DNA of 64,000 nucleotides from contig OZ245817.1 of assembly GCA_965228475.1 (NCBI GenBank), positions 1,472,001-1,536,000 of the forward strand. Direction: 5' to 3'. The translations under genes were made by a program, and so were the position numbers. Source of the DNA: Myxococcota bacterium (GTDB taxonomy: Bacteria; Myxococcota_A; UBA9160; JAFDDA01). Below the pieces are notes generated by a model that worked only from the letters and a program-made list of their open reading frames with translations, had not been told where the DNA came from and did no database searches. Shown piece by piece: positions 30,718-48,621 of the stretch (its first letter is position 1; the number at the start of each line of letters is the position of its first letter).

Positions 30718-31526
30718 CAGAAGGCCAGGGCGACGAGGTCTCGCAGGCCCTCGGCGATCTCGGCGTCGTCGGTCAACGCCTCGACCAGGGCGGCGTTGCA
30801 GGCGGCGCGCGGCGGCTGGCCCGCGTCGATCAGCCGCGCCGCGTTCACGATCAGCCGCGTCGAGGGCATCTCCGCCAGGCCCAGTGGCTCGAGTTCGCGC
30901 ATGCGGCGGACGAGGGCGCAGAGCCGCTTCCCGTGGTGCGGATCGATTCCGGTTTCGCCCCGCAGGATCTCGAGTTCGACCTCGGGCTCCGGATAGCCGA
31001 GCGACAGGGCGAGGAAGCGCTGCCGCGTCGAGGGCTTCAGCTCTTTCAAGCCGCGCTGGTAGCCTGGGTTGTAGCTCGCGACCAGCATGAAGCCCTCGGC
31101 CGCCGGAATCTCCTCGTCGTGGCGCTCGACGTAGAGCGTGCGGCGATGGTCCGAGAGCGGGTGGACGACCACCACGACGTCGCTGCGCGCCTCGGCGAAC
31201 TCGTCGAGGTAGAGGATCGCGCCCTGGCGGACGGCGCGGGTCACGGGCCCGTCCTGCCAGACCGTGTCGCCGCCCTCGACGAGGTAGCGCCCGGTGAGGT
31301 CGACGGCGCTCGTCTCGTCGTGGCAGGCAACGGTGACGAGCGGTCGCCCCAGCCGTGCGGCCATGTGCTCGACGAGCCGGGACTTCCCGCAACCCGTCGG
31401 CCCCTTCAGGAGCAGGGGGACCTTCTGCGTGAAGGCCGTCTCGAAGACCTGGCACTCGTTCGCGACGGGCCGGTACCACGGTGCTTCGCCCGGCGCGGCG
31501 GACGGCACCGGCGCAGGGCCGCTCAC
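30717..31526 (-). CDS. norQ: NorQ AAA+ ATPase (CbbQ/NirQ/NorQ family)
   Basis: LKGPTGCGKSR, WQDGP, YLDE, SYNPGYQ and LKPSTRQRF; GTGA overlap with the norB stop. Confidence 0.93.
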   Translation of the reverse strand: MSGPAPVPSAAPGEAPWYRPVANECQVFETAFTQKVPLLLKGPTGCGKSRLVEHMAARLGRPLVTVACHDETSAVDLTGRYLVEGGDTVWQDGPVTRAVRQGAILYLDEFAEARSDVVVVVHPLSDHRRTLYVERHDEEIPAAEGFMLVASYNPGYQRGLKELKPSTRQRFLALSLGYPEPEVELEILRGETGIDPHHGKRLCALVRRMRELEPLGLAEMPSTRLIVNAARLIDAGQPPRAACNAALVEALTDDAEIAEGLRDLVALAF

Positions 31527-32866
31527 CCGGCGTTCCCGGTTTCGAGGGCCTCGTCGCTCGGCAAGCCGTGCTGGGCGAAGTTCCAGATGTAGAGACCGAT
31601 GCCGAGAGTCAGCAGGCACGCGGCCAGCACCAGGCCGAGGAAGTGCACCTCGATCGCTTCCTGCACCGCCAGGAAGTCCATGCCGGCCTTGCGCTCGAGA
31701 TAGACCTGCGTGATTCCCGCGACCGCGAAGGCCCCCGTCATGCCGATCATGCCGATGTTCGAGATCCAGAACGCCCACTCCGCTGCCCAGTGGTCGAAGA
31801 GCTTGCGCCCCGTGAGCTGCGGCATGGCGTAGGAGATCATGGCCAGGACGACCATCACGTACGCACCCCAGAAGGCCATGTGTCCGTGCATGGCGGTGAT
31901 CATGGTGCCGTGGGTCCAGAGGTTCACCTGGGGGAGGGTGTGCGCGAAGCCCAGGAAGCCGGCGCCGACGAAGGACATCACGCCGCAGCCGACCGTCCAG
32001 AACAGAGCAATGCGGTTCGGGTGGCGCATGCCGCCCGCCCGGGCCATGGCGACCGCGTAGAGCGCCATGCCGAGGAAGGCCAGGGGCTCGAGGCCGGAGA
32101 AGATGCCGCCGATCCAGAGCCAGTAGTCGGGCGTGCCGATGTAGTAGTAGTGGTGGCCCGTTCCGAGGATGCCCGACAGGAACGTGAATCCGACGATCAC
32201 GTAGAGCCACTTCTCGATCACCTCGCGGTCGACGCCCGTCAGCTTGATCAACAGGAAGGCCATGATGCCACCCATGATCAGCTCCCAGACGCCCTCGACC
32301 CAGAGGTGCACCACCCACCATCGGAAGTAGGAATCGATCACCTGGCTGTCGAAGGTGATCATGCCCGGCAGGTAGAGGAGGGCGGCGGCCGTGAGACCGA
32401 CGAAGAGCACGATGCTCGTCGTCGTGAATCGCTTCCCGAACCAGAGCGTCATGCCGATGTTGAAGATGAACAGCAGCACGTCGACCACCACCAGATAGTC
32501 GAGGGGACGCGGGATCTCGAGGAACTTGCGTCCTTCCCACCAGTTCATCTGGAAACCGATGAGCGCGATCACCCCGACGATGACGAGCGCCGCCCACTGG
32601 ACCACGGCGAGCTTCTCGCTGTAGAGCTCGCGGTCCGCTTCCTCGGGAATCATGTAGTACGCCGCGCCCATGAAGCCCGAGAGCAGCCAGACGACGAGCA
32701 GGTTCAGGTGGCTCGCGCGGGCGGCGTTGAACGGGATGTAGTCGTGGAGGACGTCGAAGCCCATGTGCGCCACGGCCATGATGAAGCCGAAGACGATCTG
32801 GAGGCAGAAGAGTGCGAGCGAAGTCGCGAAGAAGAGGTAGGCCACACGCTGGGATCGAAACTTCAT
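31523..32866 (-). CDS. norB: Nitric oxide reductase catalytic subunit B (cNOR)
   Basis: HLN, WWVVHLWVEGVWE, GTGHHYY, LEP, HTLPQVN and HGHMAFWG. Confidence 0.96.
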   Translation of the reverse strand: MKFRSQRVAYLFFATSLALFCLQIVFGFIMAVAHMGFDVLHDYIPFNAARASHLNLLVVWLLSGFMGAAYYMIPEEADRELYSEKLAVVQWAALVIVGVIALIGFQMNWWEGRKFLEIPRPLDYLVVVDVLLFIFNIGMTLWFGKRFTTTSIVLFVGLTAAALLYLPGMITFDSQVIDSYFRWWVVHLWVEGVWELIMGGIMAFLLIKLTGVDREVIEKWLYVIVGFTFLSGILGTGHHYYYIGTPDYWLWIGGIFSGLEPLAFLGMALYAVAMARAGGMRHPNRIALFWTVGCGVMSFVGAGFLGFAHTLPQVNLWTHGTMITAMHGHMAFWGAYVMVVLAMISYAMPQLTGRKLFDHWAAEWAFWISNIGMIGMTGAFAVAGITQVYLERKAGMDFLAVQEAIEVHFLGLVLAACLLTLGIGLYIWNFAQHGLPSDEALETGNAG

Positions 32867-32876
32867 CGGGGCACCT

Positions 32877-33566
32877 CTAGCGAAGGCTCGCGAGCCACTG
32901 GACGAGCTCGGAGCGGGTGGCGTCGGACATGTCGAGCTTCGGCATGGCGGTGCCGGGTTTCACCGCCGGCGGATCCGCCAGCCAGCGGTCGAGCTCGGCG
33001 ACGGAGAGCCGGGACCCCACGCCGTCGAGGGCGGGGCCGACCACACCGCCGCTTCCGCCCACGGCGTGGCAGGCAATGCAGACGCTGCTGAAGAAGGCCG
33101 GCGTCGGCAGGCCCGCATCCGGCGTGGCGGTTGCGACGACCACGGCTCGGGCGAGGTCCGGCTCCGGCGGGAAGCCGTTCGTGTCGATCTCGCCGATCCA
33201 ACCGAGGAACGCGATCACGTCCTCGATCTCCTGCTCGCTGAAGTCGTACTGGATCATGCGCCGCTGGCCCGGGAACATGGCCTCGGGGTCGCGCAAGAAG
33301 ATCGCGATCCACTCGGCGCCGCGGCGCTCGACCACCCTCGTCAGCTCCGGCGCGTAGTAGGCGCCCTCACCGAGGATCGTGTGGCAGCCCATGCAGTTGT
33401 TCTTGTCCCAGATGTGCTTGCCGCGAACGACCGATTCGGTCATGCGGTCCTGGTTCTGGAGCTTCGGGATCTCGCGGAGCGTATCGATCGTGAGGAAGAT
33501 GAAGATCGCACTGAAGAAGAGGGTTCCTCCGACGAAGAACCCGCGCGCTTGTGATTTCGAGAGCAT
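32877..33566 (-). CDS. norC: Nitric oxide reductase cytochrome c subunit with a second c-haem domain
   Basis: N-terminal TM helix, CMGCHTILGEGAYYAPEL, then a second CIACH...GPAL...KPGTAMP domain. Confidence 0.92.
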   Translation of the reverse strand: MLSKSQARGFFVGGTLFFSAIFIFLTIDTLREIPKLQNQDRMTESVVRGKHIWDKNNCMGCHTILGEGAYYAPELTRVVERRGAEWIAIFLRDPEAMFPGQRRMIQYDFSEQEIEDVIAFLGWIGEIDTNGFPPEPDLARAVVVATATPDAGLPTPAFFSSVCIACHAVGGSGGVVGPALDGVGSRLSVAELDRWLADPPAVKPGTAMPKLDMSDATRSELVQWLASLR

Positions 33567-33604
33567 CGCCGTCCCCTGCACCGACAGGTGCCGAAATCAG
33601 CACA

Positions 33605-33748: not shown

Positions 33749-34012
33749 CTACACGAGCTTGCGTACGTGCTCGTAGCCCTCGCGGATCTCGTCGAGCAGG
33801 AGACGGGCGGCGTCGCCCACGTCCTGCGCCGAGGCGCGGGTCTCGGAAGCGAGCAGGTTGAGCTTCGCCTCGAGGTGCTCCCAGCTCTTCTCCGCCGCTT
33901 CGTAGCGTTCCTGGGCTTCGAGCTTCGCCAGGTGGATCTGGACGCGCAGCTCGTCGCGAAGACTGCGCAGCTCGTCGGCTTCGGCCTGGATCCGGTCTTT
34001 CAGGTCGGACAT
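33749..34012 (-). CDS. Small helical hypothetical protein (87 aa)
   Basis: ATG overlaps the USP stop; helical sequence LRDELRVQIHLAKLEAQ...EIREGYE. Confidence 0.75.
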   Translation of the reverse strand: MSDLKDRIQAEADELRSLRDELRVQIHLAKLEAQERYEAAEKSWEHLEAKLNLLASETRASAQDVGDAARLLLDEIREGYEHVRKLV

Positions 34013-34935
34013 CAGTTCTCCCCTTCGTCTCGGTTTCTGCGGACCGTCAGCACGGGGCAGGGCGCGCGGCCCACCGCCCGCTCCGCGGTGCTGCCGAGCA
34101 GCAGGTGCGGCAGGAACGATCGTCCGTGCGTGCCCATGGCGATCAGGTCGACGTCGCGGCGGCGCGCCTCGCTCTCGATGCCCTCGGCGGCGTCGCCCTC
34201 CATGCAGGCGGTCGTGATCCGGTAGCCCTTCTCGCCGAGGGGCTTCGCGGCCTTCTCGAGCTCCGCGCGCGCCTGCTCGAGGGCGCCCCGCGTCATGTCG
34301 GAGAGGACGAAGCCGCCGGCCAGGTGGATGTACTCCGGCGGGATGTGGAACGCGTGGAAGAGCACGAACTCGGTCTCCTCCCCGGCGCCGAACAGATCGA
34401 GGGCCGTCTGCAGCGCGAGGGCGGCGTCTTCGGAGAAGTCCGTCGGCACGAGCACGCGCTTCAGCTGCTCGGGGGGCAGCATGTCCGTCTGGACCGTCAG
34501 CACCGGTACCGCGGAATGCTGGACCAGGCGCTTGGCCGTGCTGCCGAGCACGAGGTGGCGCAGGCCGCGCAGGCCGCGGGTCCCGCTGATGATCAGGTCG
34601 GCCTCGTGCTCCTCGGCGGCGGCGAGGATCGTCGGGGAGGCGGGGCCGACCCGCAGGTCGCTCACCGCGTCGATGCCCTCGGCCCGGAGCCGCTGGACCT
34701 CTTCGTCGAGCCGGTCGCTCACCGCCTTGCGGTACTGGACGTGGAGCTCGGCCGGGTAGGCCGCGAACTCGGGGAACCCCGGCGCGCCCTGGGGCGGTGC
34801 CAGCGCATGCTGCAGCACGAGGCGCGCGCCCCGCTGCTTGCCGAGGAGCCTCCCCCAGGCCAGCGCCACGTTCGCGCACTCGGAGAAGTCCGTGGCGACG
34901 AGGACGGTCGAAAGGGGAGCCGGGTTCGGGGGCAT
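34012..34935 (-). CDS. Tandem-domain universal stress protein
   Basis: Two repeats: VLVATDFS...GTRG...LGSTA and VLVPTDFS...MGTHG...LGSTAE...PCPVLTV; AGGAGG RBS. Confidence 0.93.
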   Translation of the reverse strand: MPPNPAPLSTVLVATDFSECANVALAWGRLLGKQRGARLVLQHALAPPQGAPGFPEFAAYPAELHVQYRKAVSDRLDEEVQRLRAEGIDAVSDLRVGPASPTILAAAEEHEADLIISGTRGLRGLRHLVLGSTAKRLVQHSAVPVLTVQTDMLPPEQLKRVLVPTDFSEDAALALQTALDLFGAGEETEFVLFHAFHIPPEYIHLAGGFVLSDMTRGALEQARAELEKAAKPLGEKGYRITTACMEGDAAEGIESEARRRDVDLIAMGTHGRSFLPHLLLGSTAERAVGRAPCPVLTVRRNRDEGEN

Positions 34936-34989: not shown

Positions 34990-35005
34990 TTCAAGTCGCA
35001 TGCCA
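34990..35005 (-). promoter_or_regulatory. sigma54-like promoter of the USP operon (TTGA variant at -12)
   Basis: Minus strand TGGCATGCGACTTGAA. Confidence 0.55.
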
Positions 35006-35099
35006 GCAGGGCAGAGCGCTGCGGTGCGCCTTTCGGGCCCGCCTGCGCCAGAACGCCCCACTGCCCGAGCCGTCCCCGGCGGCAGAGGCGTCCGGAGTG

Positions 35100-35115
35100 C
35101 GGCACGATCGATGCA
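35100..35115 (+). promoter_or_regulatory. sigma54 promoter of the CBS gene
   Basis: CGGCACGATCGATGCA (GG-N10-GC). Confidence 0.7.
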
Positions 35116-35169
35116 ACGCTGCAGGGAACGAGGCGGCGAGCGTCAAGCAGCGCTCGCCGAGGAGGAGCC

Positions 35170-35604
35170 ATGGATCCGCGCGAGGTACCGGTTTCGGAGA
35201 TCATGCAGGCCGACTTCGTCCACATGTCGCCGGACGACGATCTCGACTACGTCTCGGAGCTCGTCCAGCTCGGGCGAGTCCGGCACTTCGCCGTGCTCGA
35301 CGAGGGACGGCTCGTCGGCATCGTCTCGCAGCGCGATCTGTTGAAGGCCTCTCTCACGAAGGCGCTGCCGGTCGCCGAGGAACGGCGCCGGGAGTTCCTG
35401 CGCACGGTGCGCGTCGGCGAGGTGATGGCGACCGACGTCCACACCGTGGCGCCGGACACGCCGCTCTCGGACGTCGCCCGGCTCCTCGATCGCTACAAGA
35501 TCGGCTGCGTGGTCGTCGTCGAGGGCGACAAGGCGGTCGGGATCGCGACGGAGACCGATCTCCTGCGACGCGCCTACATCGGAGATCGCCCCGCCGGCAG
35601 CTAG
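35170..35604 (+). CDS. Stand-alone CBS-pair protein
   Basis: GGAGGAG RBS; VRHFAV, LVGIVSQRDLL, VGEVM and VGIATETDLL. Confidence 0.9.
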   Translation: MDPREVPVSEIMQADFVHMSPDDDLDYVSELVQLGRVRHFAVLDEGRLVGIVSQRDLLKASLTKALPVAEERRREFLRTVRVGEVMATDVHTVAPDTPLSDVARLLDRYKIGCVVVVEGDKAVGIATETDLLRRAYIGDRPAGS

Positions 35605-36980
35605 CCGGCCTTGCTCTCCTCGGCCGAGGCGCGGCGGCGCTCGCCGCGCCGGTAGAGGGTTCGCCGATTGATTCCGAGGATCTCGGCCGCGCGGACCTTG
35701 TTGCCGCCCGTTTCCGAGAGCACGAGGTCGATGTAGCGGTCGCCGAGGTCGTGGAGCGTGACGCGATGCTTCGCGAAGGCCCGCAGGTCGCCGTCGGTCC
35801 CGCTGGCGGCGGCGCCCTCGTCGCCGAGCGGCAGGTCCTCCTCCTCGATCCGCTCGCCGTCGCAGAGCGCGAGCGCGCGCTCGATCACGTTCTCGAGCTC
35901 CCGAGCGTTCCCCTCCCAGTTGCAGCGCATGAGCCGCGCGAGGGCGCCCGGCGAGAGCGTGCGCGTCTCGCCGTCGGCGTGCTTCTCGAGCAGGGCCTCC
36001 GCCAGGGGGCGGACGTCGTCCGGCCGCTCGCGCAGGGGCGGGATGTGGATCGGGATCACGTTCAGCCGGTAGAAGAGGTCGCGCCGGAAGCGGCCCTCGT
36101 CCATCTCGGCCTCGAGCTCCTTGTTGGTGGCGGTCACGATGCGGACGTCCACCTTGACGGTGTGGTTCCCGCCGACCGGCCGGATCTCCCGATCCTGGAG
36201 GACGCGGAGGAGCTTGCTCTGCAGGCCGAGGCCCATGTCCCCGATTTCGTCGAGGAAGAGCGTTCCGCCGTTCGCTTCCTCGAAGAGCCCTCGCTTCGAA
36301 GCGTGCGCGCCCGTGAAGGCACCGCGCACGTGGCCGAAGAGTTCACTCTCGAGCAGGCCTTCGGGGATGGCCGTGCAGTTGATCGGGATGAACGGGCGGT
36401 CCTTGCGCGAGCTGGAGAAGTGGAGCGTCCTCGCGACGACCTCCTTGCCCGTGCCGCTCTCGCCCGTGATGAGGACGCTGCTCCGGTTGTCCGCGACCTT
36501 GCGGATCAGCGCGAAGATCTCGCGCATCGCGTCGCTCTCGCCGATCAGGTCGCCGAAGGCGCTCGTCCGGTCGACGGCGCGGCGCAGGCGCCGGTTCTCC
36601 TCTTCGAGGGCGCGGGTCTCGAAGGCGCGCTCCAGGGCGAGCAGCAGCTCTTCGCGCTTGAAGGGCTTGGTGATGTAGTCGAAGGCGCCGGCGCGCATGG
36701 ACTCGACGGCCGAGTCGATCGAGCCGAAGGCGGTCATCAGGATCACCGGGGTTCCCGGCCGCACGGCGCGGATCTCCGCCACCAGCTCGAGCCCGCTCCG
36801 GCCGGGCATGCGGATGTCCGAGACCACCGCGTCGGCATCGAGGTCGCGCAGCCGTTCGAGGGCCTTGTCGGCTCCCGACTCGCCGTGGGCCTCGAAGCCC
36901 TGATCGCAAAGCACCGAGACGACCATTTCGCGCATCGCGTCGTCGTCGTCGACCACCAAGACGTGTCGCCGTTCACTCAT
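35601..36980 (-). CDS. NtrC-family sigma54-dependent response regulator
   Basis: Receiver domain (VVDDD, SDIRMPG, KPF), Walker A GESGTGKE, GAFTGA loop, FLDEIG, FRRDLFYRL and a Fis-type HTH. Confidence 0.96.
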   Translation of the reverse strand: MSERRHVLVVDDDDAMREMVVSVLCDQGFEAHGESGADKALERLRDLDADAVVSDIRMPGRSGLELVAEIRAVRPGTPVILMTAFGSIDSAVESMRAGAFDYITKPFKREELLLALERAFETRALEEENRRLRRAVDRTSAFGDLIGESDAMREIFALIRKVADNRSSVLITGESGTGKEVVARTLHFSSSRKDRPFIPINCTAIPEGLLESELFGHVRGAFTGAHASKRGLFEEANGGTLFLDEIGDMGLGLQSKLLRVLQDREIRPVGGNHTVKVDVRIVTATNKELEAEMDEGRFRRDLFYRLNVIPIHIPPLRERPDDVRPLAEALLEKHADGETRTLSPGALARLMRCNWEGNARELENVIERALALCDGERIEEEDLPLGDEGAAASGTDGDLRAFAKHRVTLHDLGDRYIDLVLSETGGNKVRAAEILGINRRTLYRRGERRRASAEESKAG

Positions 36981-36996
36981 AGCTACCCTTCGCCAA

Positions 36997-37012
36997 AGCA
37001 CGGCCCGTGCCA
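36997..37012 (-). promoter_or_regulatory. sigma54 promoter of the activator gene
   Basis: Minus strand TGGCACGGGCCGTGCT. Confidence 0.65.
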
Positions 37013-37144
37013 GCGGGAGGGGCGCTGAGGCGGCTCTCCGGGCTCCCCGCCGGTCGAGTCGAGCCAAGAAGGCACACTCTCGGACTGAGTGTAGCAATAA
37101 GTCTCATGTCGTCCCGCTGCGCCGGGCGGTCTTCGCCCCGCGCT

Positions 37145-37160
37145 TGGCACGCGCTCTGCA
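37145..37160 (+). promoter_or_regulatory. sigma54 promoter of the CBS gene
   Basis: TGGCACGCGCTCTGCA. Confidence 0.72.
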
Positions 37161-37172
37161 CCCAACTCGGGC

Positions 37173-37565
37173 ATGCACGCGGTCCAAGATCTGATGCGGA
37201 GGCAGTTCATCCGGATCGAGCCGGATGCCGACCCGCGGGCCGCCCTCGAGCTCATGGAGATGGCGCGGGTCCGGTCGCTGCCGGTGCTGGCTCGCGGAGC
37301 GCCCCCCGGCTGGATCCTGCACCGGGATCTGGCCCAGGCAGCCCTCGACGGCAGCCTCGATCAGGAGTCGGGCATCGGCCGCTGGGTGCGGCCCGGGCTG
37401 CCGGTCCCCGTCCACATGCCGCTCTCGGACGCCGTCGAGAAGATGCTCGAGGCGGATGCGCCGTGTCTCATGGCGGCGGACTTCGAGGCCGACCCGCCGC
37501 ACATCGTCGGCCTGGTCACCGAGTCGGATCTGCTGCGCGCCGCGTACCTGAGCGCCAACGCCTAG
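37173..37565 (+). CDS. Diverged stand-alone CBS-pair protein
   Basis: VQDLM, VRSLPV and IVGLVTESDLLRAAY; resembles the gene at 35170. Confidence 0.8.
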   Translation: MHAVQDLMRRQFIRIEPDADPRAALELMEMARVRSLPVLARGAPPGWILHRDLAQAALDGSLDQESGIGRWVRPGLPVPVHMPLSDAVEKMLEADAPCLMAADFEADPPHIVGLVTESDLLRAAYLSANA

Positions 37566-37573
37566 CGGTTGGC

Positions 37574-38875
37574 CTAGGCCGTCTCCGGAGCGTCGGCCTT
37601 CGCCTGCGCCAGCGGGAGCCGGATCTCGAAGCACGTTCCCTTGCCGACTTCGCTCGTCACGTCGAGGACGCCCCCGTGGTCGCCCACGATGCCCTGGGCG
37701 ACGACCAGGCCGAGGCCGTTGCCCTGGCCCGCGGGCTTGGTGGTGAAGAACGGCTCGAAGATGTGCGCGAGCTGGTCCGCATCCATGCCCGCGCCGGTGT
37801 CCGCGAAGGTCAGCTCGAGTGTTTCCTCCGCGCCGGGACGGAGGGAGACGGTCAGGGTGCCGCCGCCTTCGGCCATGGCGTCGGCGGCGTTGAGGGCGAG
37901 GTTCAAGAAGAGCTGTTGGAGCTTCTCCGGGTCCCCGAGGACCGAGGGCGTCGGCTGGTAGTCCGTCTTCACCTCGACGGCGAGCCGCCGGAGCTTCACG
38001 CCGAGGAAGGAGAGGGTCGTCTCGAGCAGGGGCTCGAGCGCGACGGGCTCGCGGATCGACTCGCGCGGCCGCGCCATGTTCAAGAGCGCCTGGATGATGC
38101 GCGAGATCCGGTCGATCTGGTCGCGGATGGTGTTCAGCCGCCAGCGGGCCTTCTCGTCGGAGACGGCGGGTTCGAGCGCTTCGGCGTGGCCCTGGATCAC
38201 GCTCATGGGCGTCCCGATCTCGTGGGCGAGGCCGGCGGCCAGCGTGGCGACGGAGGCGAGGTCCTCGGCGGCGCGCGCGCGCCGGCTCGTCTGGCGCAGC
38301 TCGTGGGTGCGGTCGTCGAGGGTGCGGGTGAGGGAGCGGCTCGCTTCGGCGAGCTCGCGGTTCAGGTGCTCGAGCTGCTCCTCGTGGCGCGCGATGTAGG
38401 TCTCCATCGCGAGCTGCGCATCGAGCATCAGGCGCTTCATCAGTGCGGAGAGGGCGAGCTCGCAGCGGTCGACGGCCTGGCCGAAGGCGTCGCGCACGAT
38501 CGGCATGAGCAGCGTGAAGTAGAGGGTGTAGGCGCCGAGGTACCAGCGCGGTTCGAGCCCGATCCGCGCGTGGACCTCCCCGATCCGCAGCCGCTCGGCG
38601 ACGTAGGTCTCGTCGATGTCCGAGCCGAAGAGCGAGATCAGGTACGCGCGCTGGCTCTTCAGGAGGCGGGCCTTCACGGCCGGGTCCGAGAGCAGCCCGC
38701 GGGTCTCCTCGAAGGAGAGCAGGTGCCGGTAGAAGGCCGAGACGAGCGTGTCCGCCCGCTTCTCGACGTCGGGGCGCAGGCTCGCCAGGAGGCGGAGCTC
38801 GCCCGCGTCGAGGTTCAGGAAGGCCAGCCGGGTCTGGAGATCCGTTTGGAAGTCGCGGGTTTCCACTGCCCCCAT
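37574..38875 (-). CDS. Globin-coupled sensor histidine kinase (protoglobin + HisKA + HATPase; start uncertain)
   Basis: Sensor globin (FYRHL, RLRIGEVHARIGLEPRWYLGAY with the proximal His); H-box AHEIGTPM; N, G1, F and G2 boxes NAADAM, DTGAG, FEPFFTTK and GLGL. Confidence 0.92.
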   Translation of the reverse strand: MGAVETRDFQTDLQTRLAFLNLDAGELRLLASLRPDVEKRADTLVSAFYRHLLSFEETRGLLSDPAVKARLLKSQRAYLISLFGSDIDETYVAERLRIGEVHARIGLEPRWYLGAYTLYFTLLMPIVRDAFGQAVDRCELALSALMKRLMLDAQLAMETYIARHEEQLEHLNRELAEASRSLTRTLDDRTHELRQTSRRARAAEDLASVATLAAGLAHEIGTPMSVIQGHAEALEPAVSDEKARWRLNTIRDQIDRISRIIQALLNMARPRESIREPVALEPLLETTLSFLGVKLRRLAVEVKTDYQPTPSVLGDPEKLQQLFLNLALNAADAMAEGGGTLTVSLRPGAEETLELTFADTGAGMDADQLAHIFEPFFTTKPAGQGNGLGLVVAQGIVGDHGGVLDVTSEVGKGTCFEIRLPLAQAKADAPETA

Positions 38876-39011
38876 TGTGGGGAACTCCCGGTGGGGGTCA
38901 ATCCGAGGAAACCGCACCGGCCGTTCTGTGCCCATCCGTCACGCCTTCCCGGGCCGGGTGGGGCGGGCTGTCGCTCAGCCGACACGAAAGGCGAACTCGA
39001 CGTCGGATTTC

Positions 39012-39027
39012 TGGCACGGCGCTTGCG
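39012..39027 (+). promoter_or_regulatory. Consensus sigma54 promoter of the di-iron operon
   Basis: TGGCACGGCGCTTGCG, an exact TGGCACG-N4-TTGC match. Confidence 0.85.
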
Positions 39028-39071
39028 ATGCATCCCTCCCAGGTCTCGCAGCACCGCAGACGGAGGACGAC

Positions 39072-39962
39072 ATGTCGGATTTTCTCTCGGGTTACTCGAT
39101 CCAGTACTGGTTGGAGTCCTGCCCCCAGGGCTACCTCGAAGACACGGAGTTCGGTCACAAGGCCGACGCCAAGGAGCCCGCGCTCGTTCTCGAGAACGAC
39201 CTCATGCGGCAGCAGGCCATCCAGGTCACGACCCAGATGGTCGTCGGCGAGCGCTGTGCCCTGGCCGCCTCCTCGGGCCTGATCAACGCCGCGCCCGACG
39301 AAGCCGCGAAGCGCTTCCTCGCCACCCAGACCCTCGACGAAGCGCGACACGTGGAAGTGTTCACCCAGCGCCTGTTCGACCTCGGCGTCAAGAAGCAGGA
39401 TCTCGAGTCGACGATCCGCGAGTACGCGAACCCGAACCTCGTGAAGTTCGCCGAGCGGCTGCTCGAGAAGGTCGACAACAAGGACTTCATCCCCGGCGTG
39501 GTCGGCCAGAACATCATCCTCGAAGGGATGGCCTTCAGCGTCTTCGAGATGACGCACGCGGCCAACAAGGAGCTCAACCCGAAGTTCGCTCAAACCCTCG
39601 CCGGTACGATCGCCGACGAGCGGCGTCACGTCGGGTTCGGTGAGAACTACATCGGGGCCCTGATCAAGGCGCAGCCGGAGAAGAAGGCCGAGATCGAGAA
39701 GATGCAGAAGGAGATGTCCTACTACATGCTCGCCACCTTCGCGGACCAGTTCCGCGGCGACGAGAACCGCAAGGAGCTCGACGAGATGCGCCGCCAGGCG
39801 CGCGAGGCCGGCGGCACGGGCGAAGGCACGTGGCAGGGGCAGAACCTCTCGGATCTCGAACCGGACCAGATGGAGGGGCTGCTCTCGGACACGGTCCTGC
39901 ATGAGTTCAAGACGCGGCTCGGGCGGATCGGGATCGACTACCAGACGCCGTCGCAGCCCTAG
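39072..39962 (+). CDS. Ferritin-like di-iron carboxylate protein A
   Basis: GGAGGA RBS; ligand pattern VGE...DEARH...ILE...DERRH. Confidence 0.85.
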   Translation: MSDFLSGYSIQYWLESCPQGYLEDTEFGHKADAKEPALVLENDLMRQQAIQVTTQMVVGERCALAASSGLINAAPDEAAKRFLATQTLDEARHVEVFTQRLFDLGVKKQDLESTIREYANPNLVKFAERLLEKVDNKDFIPGVVGQNIILEGMAFSVFEMTHAANKELNPKFAQTLAGTIADERRHVGFGENYIGALIKAQPEKKAEIEKMQKEMSYYMLATFADQFRGDENRKELDEMRRQAREAGGTGEGTWQGQNLSDLEPDQMEGLLSDTVLHEFKTRLGRIGIDYQTPSQP

Positions 39963-39973
39963 AGGAGACCCCG

Positions 39974-40756
39974 ATGGCAGAGTCGGCCGAGGTCCATGGC
40001 CTCACCCCCGAAGAGTTCGAGGAGCGGGTTCACTCCTTCCAGTTCTGGTTCGATTCGGTCCAGGGCTATCTCTCGGGGAGCGAGTACGGCCATCAGGCCC
40101 ATTCGCCGCCCGCTTCCGAGGACATGGACGCCTCGGAGAAGGACCGGCTCATCACGGTGCTCTGCAACTACTGCGTCGGAGAGACCGCTGCGCTCGATGG
40201 AGCCAGCGGCCTCGTCGCGGGGGCGCCCAACCGGCTGACGAAGATCTTCCTCTCGACCCAGGTCGTGGACGAAGGCCGGCACCTCGAGGTGCTGCGCAAC
40301 CGGCTCGTCGAGCTCGGCGTGGCCGACCCGGAGGAGGAGATCGAGCGCCGTGCGACGCCGCGCCTGCGGGACTTCCGTTCCCGGCTCCAGGCGCTCGTCG
40401 CCGAGCGGGATTGGGAGGCGGCGATCTTCGCCCAGAACGTGATCCTCGAAGCGATGGAGTTCGCCACCTTCCACACCCACGCGCAGCACGCGGACCCGGT
40501 CACGCGGGAAGTGCTGCAGGGGATCATCAAGGACGAGCGCCGGCACATCGGGTTCGGCGAGCGGGAGCTCGGACGGCGCCTGAAGCACCACCCGACCCTG
40601 CGCCATCGCCTGGCGCGCGTGCGCAGCCAGCTCGACCCGCTCGTGCTTGCCTCCTTCGAAGACGCCATGGGGGAGCTGAAGGTCCCGGTCGACGAGCGCG
40701 AGCAGCTCGGCCGGAGCTACCTCGAGGCGGTGGAGCGCCTGGGGGTGGGGCTGTGA
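39974..40756 (+). CDS. Ferritin-like di-iron carboxylate protein B (paralog of A)
   Basis: GAGGAG RBS; VGE...DEGRH...ILE...DERRH; N-terminal SFQFWFDSVQGYL...GH motif shared with A. Confidence 0.85.
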   Translation: MAESAEVHGLTPEEFEERVHSFQFWFDSVQGYLSGSEYGHQAHSPPASEDMDASEKDRLITVLCNYCVGETAALDGASGLVAGAPNRLTKIFLSTQVVDEGRHLEVLRNRLVELGVADPEEEIERRATPRLRDFRSRLQALVAERDWEAAIFAQNVILEAMEFATFHTHAQHADPVTREVLQGIIKDERRHIGFGERELGRRLKHHPTLRHRLARVRSQLDPLVLASFEDAMGELKVPVDEREQLGRSYLEAVERLGVGL

Positions 40757-41046
40757 GCGGGCAGATCGTCGAGATGAACCCGGATGCGCCGCGCAAGCGC
40801 TACGAACTCCTGGACGACACGGGCTTCGACGAGGTCCCGAAGAAGTACCGGAAGTTCTACCGCCGCTGGGAGGGTGCGGGCGATTCGCTCGCCCCGAACG
40901 AAGTCCTCTGCCCCGTGTGCAAGGTCGTGATCCGCTCGAACCGCGAGCTCCGCATCGGGGACCGCGTCTACTGCATGGCGTGCATGGCCCGCATGCGGGT
41001 CGTGCGGGACGAGGGCGGCCAGCTCGTGGCCGAGGTCGAGTACTAG
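40753..41046 (+). CDS. Small Cys4 protein (rubredoxin/zinc-ribbon, LysW-like knuckles)
   Basis: GTGA overlap with the upstream stop; CPVC-x17-CMAC; 97 aa. Confidence 0.78.
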   Translation: MSGQIVEMNPDAPRKRYELLDDTGFDEVPKKYRKFYRRWEGAGDSLAPNEVLCPVCKVVIRSNRELRIGDRVYCMACMARMRVVRDEGGQLVAEVEY

Positions 41047-41064: not shown

Positions 41065-41259
41065 CTAGCGGCTCGGCGGAGGCTCCGCGGCCTCGGCCCG
41101 TTCTTCGCGCTCCGGGCAGGCGTCGTCGTCCTCGAGATGGCGGTGGGCCGGCCCTTCCCAATCGTCGAACTCCCCGCGCCGGACGGAACGCACGACGATC
41201 CACAGCAGCACGCCCGCGAGCAGGAGCGAGGCCGGGATGGTGATGGCGAGGAAGCTCAT
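41065..41259 (-). CDS. ccoS: cbb3 oxidase maturation protein CcoS
   Basis: TM helix followed by VRRGEFDDWEGPAHRHL; last gene of the cco cluster. Confidence 0.88.
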   Translation of the reverse strand: MSFLAITIPASLLLAGVLLWIVVRSVRRGEFDDWEGPAHRHLEDDDACPEREERAEAAEPPPSR

Positions 41260-48093: not shown

Positions 48094-48534
48094 ATGTCCA
48101 GCCGCGAAGATCAGACCGGCCTGCGCCTGCGCATCGACCGCGAGGCGCGCCGCATCTCCTCCCAGCACCGCCAGCTCGATGTCTTCTACGAGCGCGTGAT
48201 CCACTTCCTCACCGGTGGCGACGCCGCCCGCGCCCGCGCCGAGTTCCTCCGGCTCTGCGACGCGCTCGAGGCACACTTCACCGTCGAGGAGCGCATGCAC
48301 TTCCCCGCATTGCACGGCCTGCGTCCCGAGCTCGACGCCGAGCTCGCCGGGCTCGTGGAAGAACACAAGGCGTTTCGCTCGGCGCTCGAAGCGATCACCG
48401 GACATCTCCAAGGCTCGGAGCTCGGCCGGGCTTCCGCGGCCCTCGACCGGCTCGTGGTCGACCTGGCCGCCCACGAAGGGCGCGAGGAGAAGATGGCCGA
48501 GCAGCTCGATCGGTCGCCCGGCGAGACCCGCTGA
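48094..48534 (+). CDS. Hemerythrin-like (HHE cation-binding) protein
   Basis: QH...[11 protein letters not shown]...EH...HEGREE ligand pattern. Confidence 0.85.
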
Positions 48535-48605: not shown

Positions 48606-48621
48606 CGGCACGCTCCTTGCT
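48606..48621 (+). promoter_or_regulatory. sigma54 promoter of the outer-membrane protein gene
   Basis: CGGCACGCTCCTTGCT. Confidence 0.75.

Follow-up and report, generated by a model that had tools for sequence, protein, structure and literature searches.

Ferritin-like diiron enzymes carry out demanding chemistry with O2, and each new branch of the superfamily (ADO, AurF, R2lox, VlmB, and BioE) has brought new reactions with it. Cyanobacterial ADO is a single subunit that uses ferredoxin. The norVW genes are expressed from a sigma-54 promoter under the control of NorR, and the small protein LysW carries its substrate on an acidic C-terminal tail that ends in Glu. Here we analyze a three-gene system, the trio A, B, and C, in which two ferritin-like diiron paralogs are followed by a small Cys4 protein behind a sigma-54 promoter (positions 39012 to 41046). 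It lies in a 64-kb stretch of a Myxococcota bacterium genome (contig OZ245817.1, positions 1,472,001 to 1,536,000), hereafter the window, which we analyzed at its full length and to which all coordinates refer unless stated otherwise.

The described systems closest to the trio concern either its enzymes or its regulation. According to two reviews, VlmB is a non-heme diiron enzyme that forms the azoxy group by oxidizing the hydrazine supplied by the membrane protein VlmO (PMC11705231, PMC13755311). For regulation, the accessible text on the NmpRSTU system of Myxococcus xanthus reports that the protoglobin kinase NmpU and the NtrC-like NmpR govern sigma-54 promoters, with a CBS gene, a universal stress protein (USP) gene, a P-type ATPase/cbb3 operon, and hemN-hemerythrin as NmpR targets (PMC11841059).

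A preliminary description of the locus had proposed a heterodimeric diiron enzyme with a separate rubredoxin-like electron carrier, acting in the handling of O2 or nitric oxide (NO) or in the maturation of an oxidase cofactor or of lipids, and had recognized no named system with this layout. We likewise found no paper on the trio and no published system of this kind in the literature, subscription journals excepted, and no curated family covers it. We propose with moderate confidence that the trio is an O2-using heteromeric oxidase/oxygenase with C as its docking or accessory subunit, and that it is controlled by oxygen availability.

Results

The trio is a conserved operon

Gene A (39072-39962, + strand) encodes 296 amino acids (aa) and has GGAGG 8 nucleotides (nt) 5′ of its ATG. 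Gene B (39974-40756, +) encodes 260 aa behind a GAGGAG-type ribosome site, and gene C (40753-41046, +) encodes 97 aa from a GTG that overlaps the TGA of B by 4 nt, so that C is translationally coupled, as described before; an in-frame ATG at 40774 is an alternative start that would give 90 aa. A scan of one genome per species returned 310 stretches encoding a relative of A, from which we kept the 80 best loci. The order A-B-C is found in 66 of these 80 loci, with B only a fragment in L023. Two more have A-B before the contig end cuts off the rest, three have A-C without B, and nine have A alone. B without C was never seen where the contig left room. Where all three genes are full length (64 loci), the median gap is 11 nt between A and B and -4 nt between B and C. 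This association is far beyond chance, and the trio, which the preliminary description had treated as a unit, is a conserved one.

Several genomes carry the full trio plus extra A-only copies. The A-only copies of L028, L029, L039, and L052 (69-72% identical to A) are followed by a Peptidase_M48-domain protein of ~520-545 aa; in L039 this protein bears a lipoprotein-type signal sequence, which makes a direct cytoplasmic partnership with A seem unlikely.

Wide conservation of the trio is seen in two bacterial groups, most of whose members are uncultured. In the phylum of the window, C is present in 39 of 401 sampled genomes, nearly all of them from the window's own order plus one further family of the class. 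The second group is the class holding the loci labeled ‘Binatia’, where 47 of 151 genomes encode C, against only 3 of 201 in an even sample of that class's whole phylum. The few labeled members of the Atlas look-alike clusters are Actinomycetota and Pseudomonadota.

A and B are non-equivalent diiron proteins related to VlmB

A and B had been called adjacent paralogs with complete E/ExxH/E/ExxH ligand sets, and this is confirmed. The two proteins are 39% identical over 218 residues (expectation value (E) 4e-47). In alignments made from the sequences of the related loci, each ligand of A (E60, E90/H93, E151, and E183/H186) is invariant in 38 of 38 sequences and each ligand of B (E70, E100/H103, E159, and E188/H191) in 46 of 46. 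Around these ligands the residues differ. A has an invariant Cys62 two residues past the first ligand Glu (38/38). B has a C64-N-Y66-C67 motif just before its first ligand (C64 in 43/46, Y66 in 46/46, and C67 in 41/46) and an extra Glu162 near the metal site (46/46). With such distinct residue sets, the two sites are non-equivalent. A also has a C-terminal extension of ~40 residues that ends in [ED]YQTPxxP.

Among the sequences of the PDB, the best match of A is the Kitasatospora protein 6d9f/8wvr (VlmB), with E 4.9e-16 over residues 10-270, and B matches ADO (E 5.9e-10) and VlmB (E 2.1e-8). The AlphaFold model of A (predicted local distance difference test score, pLDDT, 86.6) gave a similar picture in Foldseek. 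The top match was 8wvr, the azoxy synthase VlmB with its substrate (E 4.6e-9, template modeling (TM) score 0.81, 25% identity), with 6d9f similar, and Chlamydia R2c, R2lox, and ADO followed far behind. The four ligand motifs match up in the residue alignment of A with VlmB. The N-terminal motif noted earlier as shared by A and B is real, and because VlmB has it too (YWL..QG.L..E.GH), it marks the family. The nearest named Atlas clusters for the diiron proteins of the trio are ‘VlmB’ and ‘VlmB family protein’.

Neither A nor B reaches any curated equivalog. In Pfam and NCBIfam, A has only weak, sub-cut-off matches to the ribonucleotide reductase small chain, ADO, AurF, and R2lox, its Pfam Ald_deCOase score being 20.2 bits against a cut-off of 28. 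B exceeds the Pfam cut-offs of Ald_deCOase (PF11266; 36.9 vs 28 bits) and of MiaE_2 (29.4 vs 25.2 bits), and both matches are partial, the first covering model positions 79-188 of 218. The NCBIfam ADO equivalog (TIGR04059) has a cut-off of 222.65 bits, and B scores 36.9 and A 18.8. Pfam Rubrerythrin was not listed for either protein at E <=0.01. A multicomponent monooxygenase or PaaABC-type oxygenase was considered and rejected, since Phenol_Hydrox matches B only and below its cut-off (21.9 vs 24.4 bits), no reductase gene is nearby, and both paralogs retain all ligands.

The 5-Mb genome that holds the window encodes 10 further ferritin-like diiron paralogs that are 31-37% identical to A, a notable expansion. 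They are of a different type, about 330-370 aa long with the motifs NWNYEPE..., FLHGEQGAL, and DEARHVE, and are found at C1:70776-71261, 4168609-4169085, 3874843-3875340, 964685-965092, 2347829-2348269, and 1029056-1029517, plus four other positions.

C is a strongly conserved Cys4 protein with a LysW-like fold

C begins with a variable N-terminus, which is followed by a conserved basic/aromatic stretch (..RxRYEL.DDTGFDEVPKKYRKFYRRW..) and by CPVC-x17-CMxC. The pattern CxxC-x17-CxxC is found in 187 of 188 homologs, in agreement with the earlier reading of C as a Cys4 protein. The final residue is Tyr in 118 of 120 database homologs and in 65 of 68 locus-encoded homologs, and the N-terminal half adds ~40 conserved residues to the zinc-ribbon-like half. 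There is no family for C in Pfam or NCBIfam, and the ~1,755 database clusters that match it are all unnamed. Against 1.84 billion representatives of 50%-identity clusters, a C profile gave 99 matches at E <=0.001, many of them fragments, and only 4 of the 99 at E <=1e-30. So few matches point to a compact family under very strong conservation with no distant relatives in reach. A PDB sequence search with the profile returned chance-level zinc-finger and RING matches (best E 0.022), and a search of the plasmid collection with C gave no match.

Based on its structure model (pLDDT 86.7), the C-terminal half of C appears by fold to resemble the LysW zinc-ribbon domain more than rubredoxin. The four best PDB matches in Foldseek are all LysW (E 0.026-0.2, target TM 0.65-0.73, 48 columns). 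VIA-align also placed two LysW chains first (Z 4.5, root-mean-square deviation 2.0-2.2 Å, 25-28% identity), with the next chain at Z 2.7, and residues 48-97 of C superpose on LysW residues 1-48. No rubredoxin was listed for C by either aligner; in VIA-align none was among the 17 chains with Z >=2 out of 48,161 compared, an absence that the tool's own note treats as indecisive. At lenient thresholds, 6 of 46 C homologs matched Zn_ribbon_LysW and 5 of 46 matched Rubredoxin, all below threshold (best Rubredoxin E 0.0041). As both types of knuckle are touched at low score, sequence alone fails to separate them. The C of the window has no match to Pfam Zn_ribbon_LysW at E <=5, and a weak profile match, P0340 (E 6e-4), falls in a region that Pfam labels Zn_ribbon_LysW, which gives a transitive link. 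The electron carrier of rubredoxin type put forward in the preliminary description is weakened by the structural ranking.

Eight longer proteins contain a C-like part. P0241 and P0247 were examined as possible B-C fusions and rejected: after ~180 residues that match B, they continue in Arg/Pro-rich, out-of-frame sequence, and we read them as frameshifted assemblies. The metagenomic protein P0297/P0347 (693 aa), in which an ABC1/UbiB-type atypical kinase domain (212 bits) is fused to a C-like module (E 1.2e-13), looks genuine. It forms a 2-member cluster from 2 sources, and it retains the Cys4 motif with a Tyr that is not terminal. ABC1 genes had no match in the 80 loci or the window, and the eight strong ABC1 genes of the genome are all distant from the trio.

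The promoter is of the sigma-54 type and lies beside an oxygen sensor

The sigma-54 (-24/-12) promoter TGGCACGGCGCTTGC (39012-39026, +) begins 60 nt 5′ of the start codon of A. It is a zero-mismatch TGGCACG-N4-TTGC and the sole perfect match in the 64-kb window, which justifies its earlier designation as the best sigma-54 promoter there. Sites with at most one mismatch number 6 in the window, against 0.92 expected from shuffles. Neither a + strand sigma-70-like promoter nor an intrinsic terminator was found between 38800 and 41300. For the related loci, an element within 200 nt 5′ of A was counted when nine or more of the 11 consensus positions, among them GG, matched, and counts cover the 78 loci with sufficient upstream sequence. 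A comparable element precedes A in 56 of these 78, against 3% of 4000 random 200-nt stretches. At a threshold of at least 10 of 11 positions, the figures are 33 of 78 and 0.55%, and a stricter pattern was matched by only 20 of the 78 upstream regions.

Other upstream elements were also observed. A TGA-N6-TCA (FNR/CRP-like) palindrome is found in 11 of 78 upstream regions (background 3.9%). Nine loci without a sigma-54-like element have it 68-121 nt upstream, some of them adjoined by Crp/FNR-family genes. The strict FNR box TTGA-N6-TCAA was found in none of the 78, and 13 of the 78 have neither a sigma-54-like element nor TGA-N6-TCA. In the window, an inverted repeat TGTCG-N6-CGACA of the TGT-N10-ACA type (38969-38984, +) stands 43 nt 5′ of the -24 element and may be where the sigma-54 activator binds. 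Repeats of the form TGT-N10/11-ACA lie 5′ of the -24 element in only 3 of 57 sigma-54-positive loci (the window, L007, and L013), against 0.8% of random 160-nt stretches. A different palindrome, CCGACCGATCGGTCGG (at most 3 mismatches), has matches 44-111 nt 5′ of A in 15 of the 78 upstream regions, a rate to be compared with 0.6% for random stretches (L002, L008, L010, L014, L020, L026, L027, L028, L032, L035, L048, L054, L057, L062, and L064). It is absent from the window and may be regarded as a candidate operator.

The regulatory genes of the window lie on the other side of this promoter. The operon is placed, as described before, between a globin kinase and the cco genes. The kinase (37574-38935, -) is a globin-coupled (protoglobin) histidine kinase divergent from A, with Pfam Protoglobin (132 bits), HisKA, and HATPase_c domains and a globin part that matches HemAT (E 1.3e-15). 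The kinase probably provides the sensory input. It is followed by a CBS-pair protein (37173-37565, +) and by an NtrC-type sigma-54 activator (35601-37097, -) with receiver, AAA+, and HTH_8 domains, the true start of which is probably at 36980. Homologs of the kinase (>50% identity) are divergent and directly 5′ of A in 8 of the 80 related loci in addition to the window, and the CBS protein and the activator come next beyond the kinase wherever the contig reaches (L001, L007, L008, L013, and L049).

Further sigma-54-like sites with one mismatch lie at 36998-37012 (-) before the activator, at 37145-37159 (+) before the CBS gene, and at 48606-48620 (+) at the 5′ end of an open reading frame (ORF) for an outer-membrane Phenol_MetA_deg-like protein. 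These sites suggest a small local sigma-54 regulon.

The direction of such a control would depend on the wiring. One NmpR target has been shown to be induced by hypoxia, the M. xanthus relay makes the regulon hypoxia-induced, and in Anaeromyxobacter the homologous kinase is active in the O2-bound state, as stated in the accessible text (PMC11841059). Activity of the Anaeromyxobacter type combined with a direct path from kinase to activator would mean induction by oxygen, whereas the M. xanthus relay gives the opposite sign.

The most frequent neighbor is a sigma-54 activator

Directly downstream of C is the convergent ccoS (41065-41259), whose stop codon is 18 nt from that of C, followed by ccoI, fixH, and fixG and, further on, by ccoP, ccoO, and ccoN. 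A hemerythrin-domain ORF (about 48154-48531, +; Pfam 46 bits) is divergent from ccoN. On the other side, just past the activator gene, are a second CBS-pair protein (about 35000-35604, +) and a tandem-USP protein (34012-34935, -), protein types that are also those of the published NmpR regulon. At 31523-33581 (-), a 234-aa c-type cytochrome is followed by a 447-aa COX1-family protein that scores 43.7 bits against a ccoN cut-off of 583 bits. This is a second haem-copper-oxidase-like pair, possibly NO-reductase-like.

Neighbors were surveyed by de novo clustering of the ORFs within +/-10 kb of A in the 80 loci and the window (81 loci). The sole frequent neighbor is an NtrC-type sigma-54 activator (20/81). 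USP (10/81), hemerythrin-domain proteins (9/81, directly 5′ of A in L003, L044, and L058), short-chain dehydrogenases/reductases (SDR; 9/81), WS/DGAT (7/81), the outer-membrane Phenol_MetA_deg-like protein (7/81), and Crp/FNR-family regulators (6/81) are less common. The clusters checked against Pfam comprised USP, hemerythrin, SDR, WS/DGAT, Crp/FNR, and M48. None of the genes conserved with the full trio in this survey encodes a ligase, a peptidase, or an exporter, and no azoxy-pathway neighbor recurs, VlmO not having been searched for by sequence. Linkage of the trio to the globin kinase and to cco or nor genes had been put forward as a point to survey. The kinase does recur directly 5′ of A, in the 8 loci given above, but only 5 of the 80 have ccoI/ccoS at a distance of up to 10 kb, and the recurrent partners are regulators rather than oxidase genes, so that the proposed role in oxidase maturation finds little backing.

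Discussion

The anatomy of the locus, the invariant ligands, and the place of A and B next to VlmB agree best with an oxygen-dependent enzyme of several subunits. In the mechanism that we favor, A, B, and C would be expressed as a single sigma-54-dependent operon and yield a soluble non-heme diiron oxidase/oxygenase that falls, within the ferritin-like superfamily, in the VlmB/ADO/R2lox branch. Both A and B are predicted to bind a dimetal centre and would most likely pair as a heterodimer, and C, as a small Cys4 zinc-ribbon subunit, would probably dock on A (and B) in an accessory, adaptor, or assembly role. In this genome, the divergent globin-coupled kinase most likely drives expression through the NtrC-type activator. 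The trio would then share an oxygen-responsive regulon with the genes for CBS, USP, cbb3 oxidase, and hemerythrin, and this regulon would resemble the one that NmpR controls in M. xanthus. The enzyme probably oxidizes an endogenous small molecule with O2, and the chemistry of the family suggests N-oxidation or the deformylation or hydroxylation of a lipid-like substrate.

Several observations weigh against this proposal. No conserved substrate-supplying or reductase gene stands beside the trio in the 81-locus survey, and the substrate class is consequently a guess from family chemistry. The kinase is linked to the promoter by gene adjacency only, and the M. xanthus NmpR box GCGCA-N5-TGCGC, with at most one mismatch, was not found at 38600-39020 (the whole window has 17 one-mismatch sites, against 11 expected). 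The nine loci with A but neither B nor C and the three with A-C but no B indicate that an A-B heterodimer is not obligatory for A. Lastly, the pairing of a diiron protein with a small Cys4 protein is equally expected if C is a rubredoxin electron carrier, and 5 of 46 C homologs have sub-threshold matches to Rubredoxin.

This last point leads to the alternative that survives best, in which A and B would be a rubrerythrin-like reductase of O2, H2O2, or NO that is fed by C as a rubredoxin-type iron carrier and protects or tunes respiration when O2 or NO changes. Such a reductase would be at home in the O2-sensing and respiratory context of the globin kinase and the cbb3, hemerythrin, and USP genes, and no conserved metabolic neighbor hints at an organic substrate. 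Besides the Rubredoxin matches, B itself has a CxxC adjacent to the first of its ligand Glu residues, and its E159/E162 pair resembles ExxE. We nevertheless consider this reading unlikely. The analogy with rubrerythrin, drawn in the preliminary description, does not fit A and B, which lack a listed Pfam Rubrerythrin match and have, instead of the short rubrerythrin bundle, the larger R2/ADO/VlmB fold, whose characterized members act on organic substrates. The best folds for C are LysW, and the 17 chains include no rubredoxin, indecisive as that absence is. Moreover, no reductase gene is conserved nearby and linkage to cco is limited to the 5 loci mentioned.

The partial likeness of B to ADO raises the possibility that the trio acts on lipids or prenyl lipids. 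It would then deformylate (in the manner of ADO), desaturate, or hydroxylate a fatty aldehyde, an acyl chain, or an isoprenoid quinone, and C would serve as the adaptor that connects it to lipid-handling proteins. B is above the Pfam Ald_deCOase cut-off and matches the solved ADOs, and the VlmB deposition 6d9f is titled as having aldehyde-deformylating activity. WS/DGAT, SDR, and the outer-membrane Phenol_MetA_deg-like protein are found nearby in some loci, and the natural fusion P0297 of an ABC1/UbiB-type kinase with a C-like module is a lead in the same direction. Set against this are the score of B far below the NCBIfam ADO equivalog cut-off and the low frequency of every lipid-related neighbor (<12% of loci); the fusion is a single case, with no ABC1 gene in the 80 loci or the window. 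On balance, a lipid enzyme seems quite improbable.

C could also be the substrate of A and B or a carrier for it. A and B might oxidize its C-terminal Tyr and in this way generate a protein-derived cofactor, a cross-link, or a peptide product; alternatively, C might present a tethered molecule to the diiron site in the manner of LysW. The LysW-like globular domain, the near-invariant terminal Tyr, the very strong conservation of C seen in the profile search, the invariant Cys62 of A so close to the first ligand Glu, and the three loci in which C stays with A without B all speak for such a role. It is quite improbable in our estimation, as the genes conserved with the full trio include no ATP-grasp or other ligase and neither a peptidase nor an exporter, and C lacks the acidic tail of LysW. 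A variant that we consider equally improbable makes C a working catalytic partner, whose terminal Tyr, or a cargo tethered to it, would be offered to the diiron sites of A and B lined by Cys62 and by CNYC. If true, this would be the first ferritin-like oxygenase that depends on a carrier or substrate protein, and it would be switched on by an oxygen-sensing kinase.

That A and B are true VlmB-type enzymes of an azoxy or N-N pathway in a natural-product cluster is highly improbable despite VlmB being the closest characterized relative, as identity to VlmB is only ~25% and the genes that recur beside the trio are regulators and respiration or stress genes, not a membrane hydrazine synthase or other biosynthetic genes.

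With the O2-using oxidase/oxygenase as the preferred reading, the trio is at present a clearly delimited unknown and should not surprise the field. The branch to which it belongs is large and strongly conserved (about 2,000 clusters at 90% identity for A and about 1,750 clusters for C) and is found here next to a haem-based gas sensor. Knowing the substrate would bring an oxygen-controlled enzyme into the known physiology of Myxococcota-like and Binatia-like bacteria, and it would also explain a new architecture of diiron proteins with a zinc ribbon.

Compared with the known systems, the trio shares parts with several of them. Similar to rubrerythrin and the flavorubredoxin NorV, it follows the general logic of a diiron site with a Cys4 module, but its diiron fold is another one, the fold of C ranks LysW first, and C is a separate protein with an extra N-terminal half. 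C is like LysW at the fold level only, in its zinc-ribbon globular domain. It ends in Tyr without an acidic tail, it has the additional N-terminal half, and no ATP-grasp ligase is nearby; in the absence of both tail and ligase, C does not strictly qualify as a carrier of the LysW type. B shares the diiron ferritin-like fold with cyanobacterial ADO (PF11266) and exceeds the Pfam cut-off over part of the model, yet the trio falls far under the NCBIfam equivalog cut-off and no acyl-ACP reductase partner was seen at the locus. The regulatory setting is like that of NmpRSTU, with a protoglobin kinase, an NtrC-like activator, and sigma-54 promoters, and both settings include CBS, USP, cbb3/P-type ATPase, and hemerythrin genes; as far as the accessible text goes, the published Nmp regulon lists no diiron trio (PMC11841059). 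The window differs from NmpRSTU in that the locus has no hybrid ‘inverter’ (NmpS-like) kinase and the trio promoter lacks an NmpR box. VlmB (8wvr/6d9f) is the nearest to A and B, with the same ferritin-like/R2-like fold, the same E/ExxH/E/ExxH ligands, and the same N-terminal motif, and similarity places both proteins in its family (A E 4.9e-16, B E 2.1e-8, TM 0.8). VlmB is a single protein in the valanimycin biosynthetic cluster and acts after the membrane hydrazine synthase, according to the two reviews (PMC11705231, PMC13755311). The trio, by contrast, combines two non-equivalent paralogs with a Cys4 protein, has no biosynthetic neighbors, and stands in a sigma-54 and O2-sensor setting. We describe it as a diiron enzyme of the VlmB/ADO type whose three-part format, with probable control by a sensor, is new.

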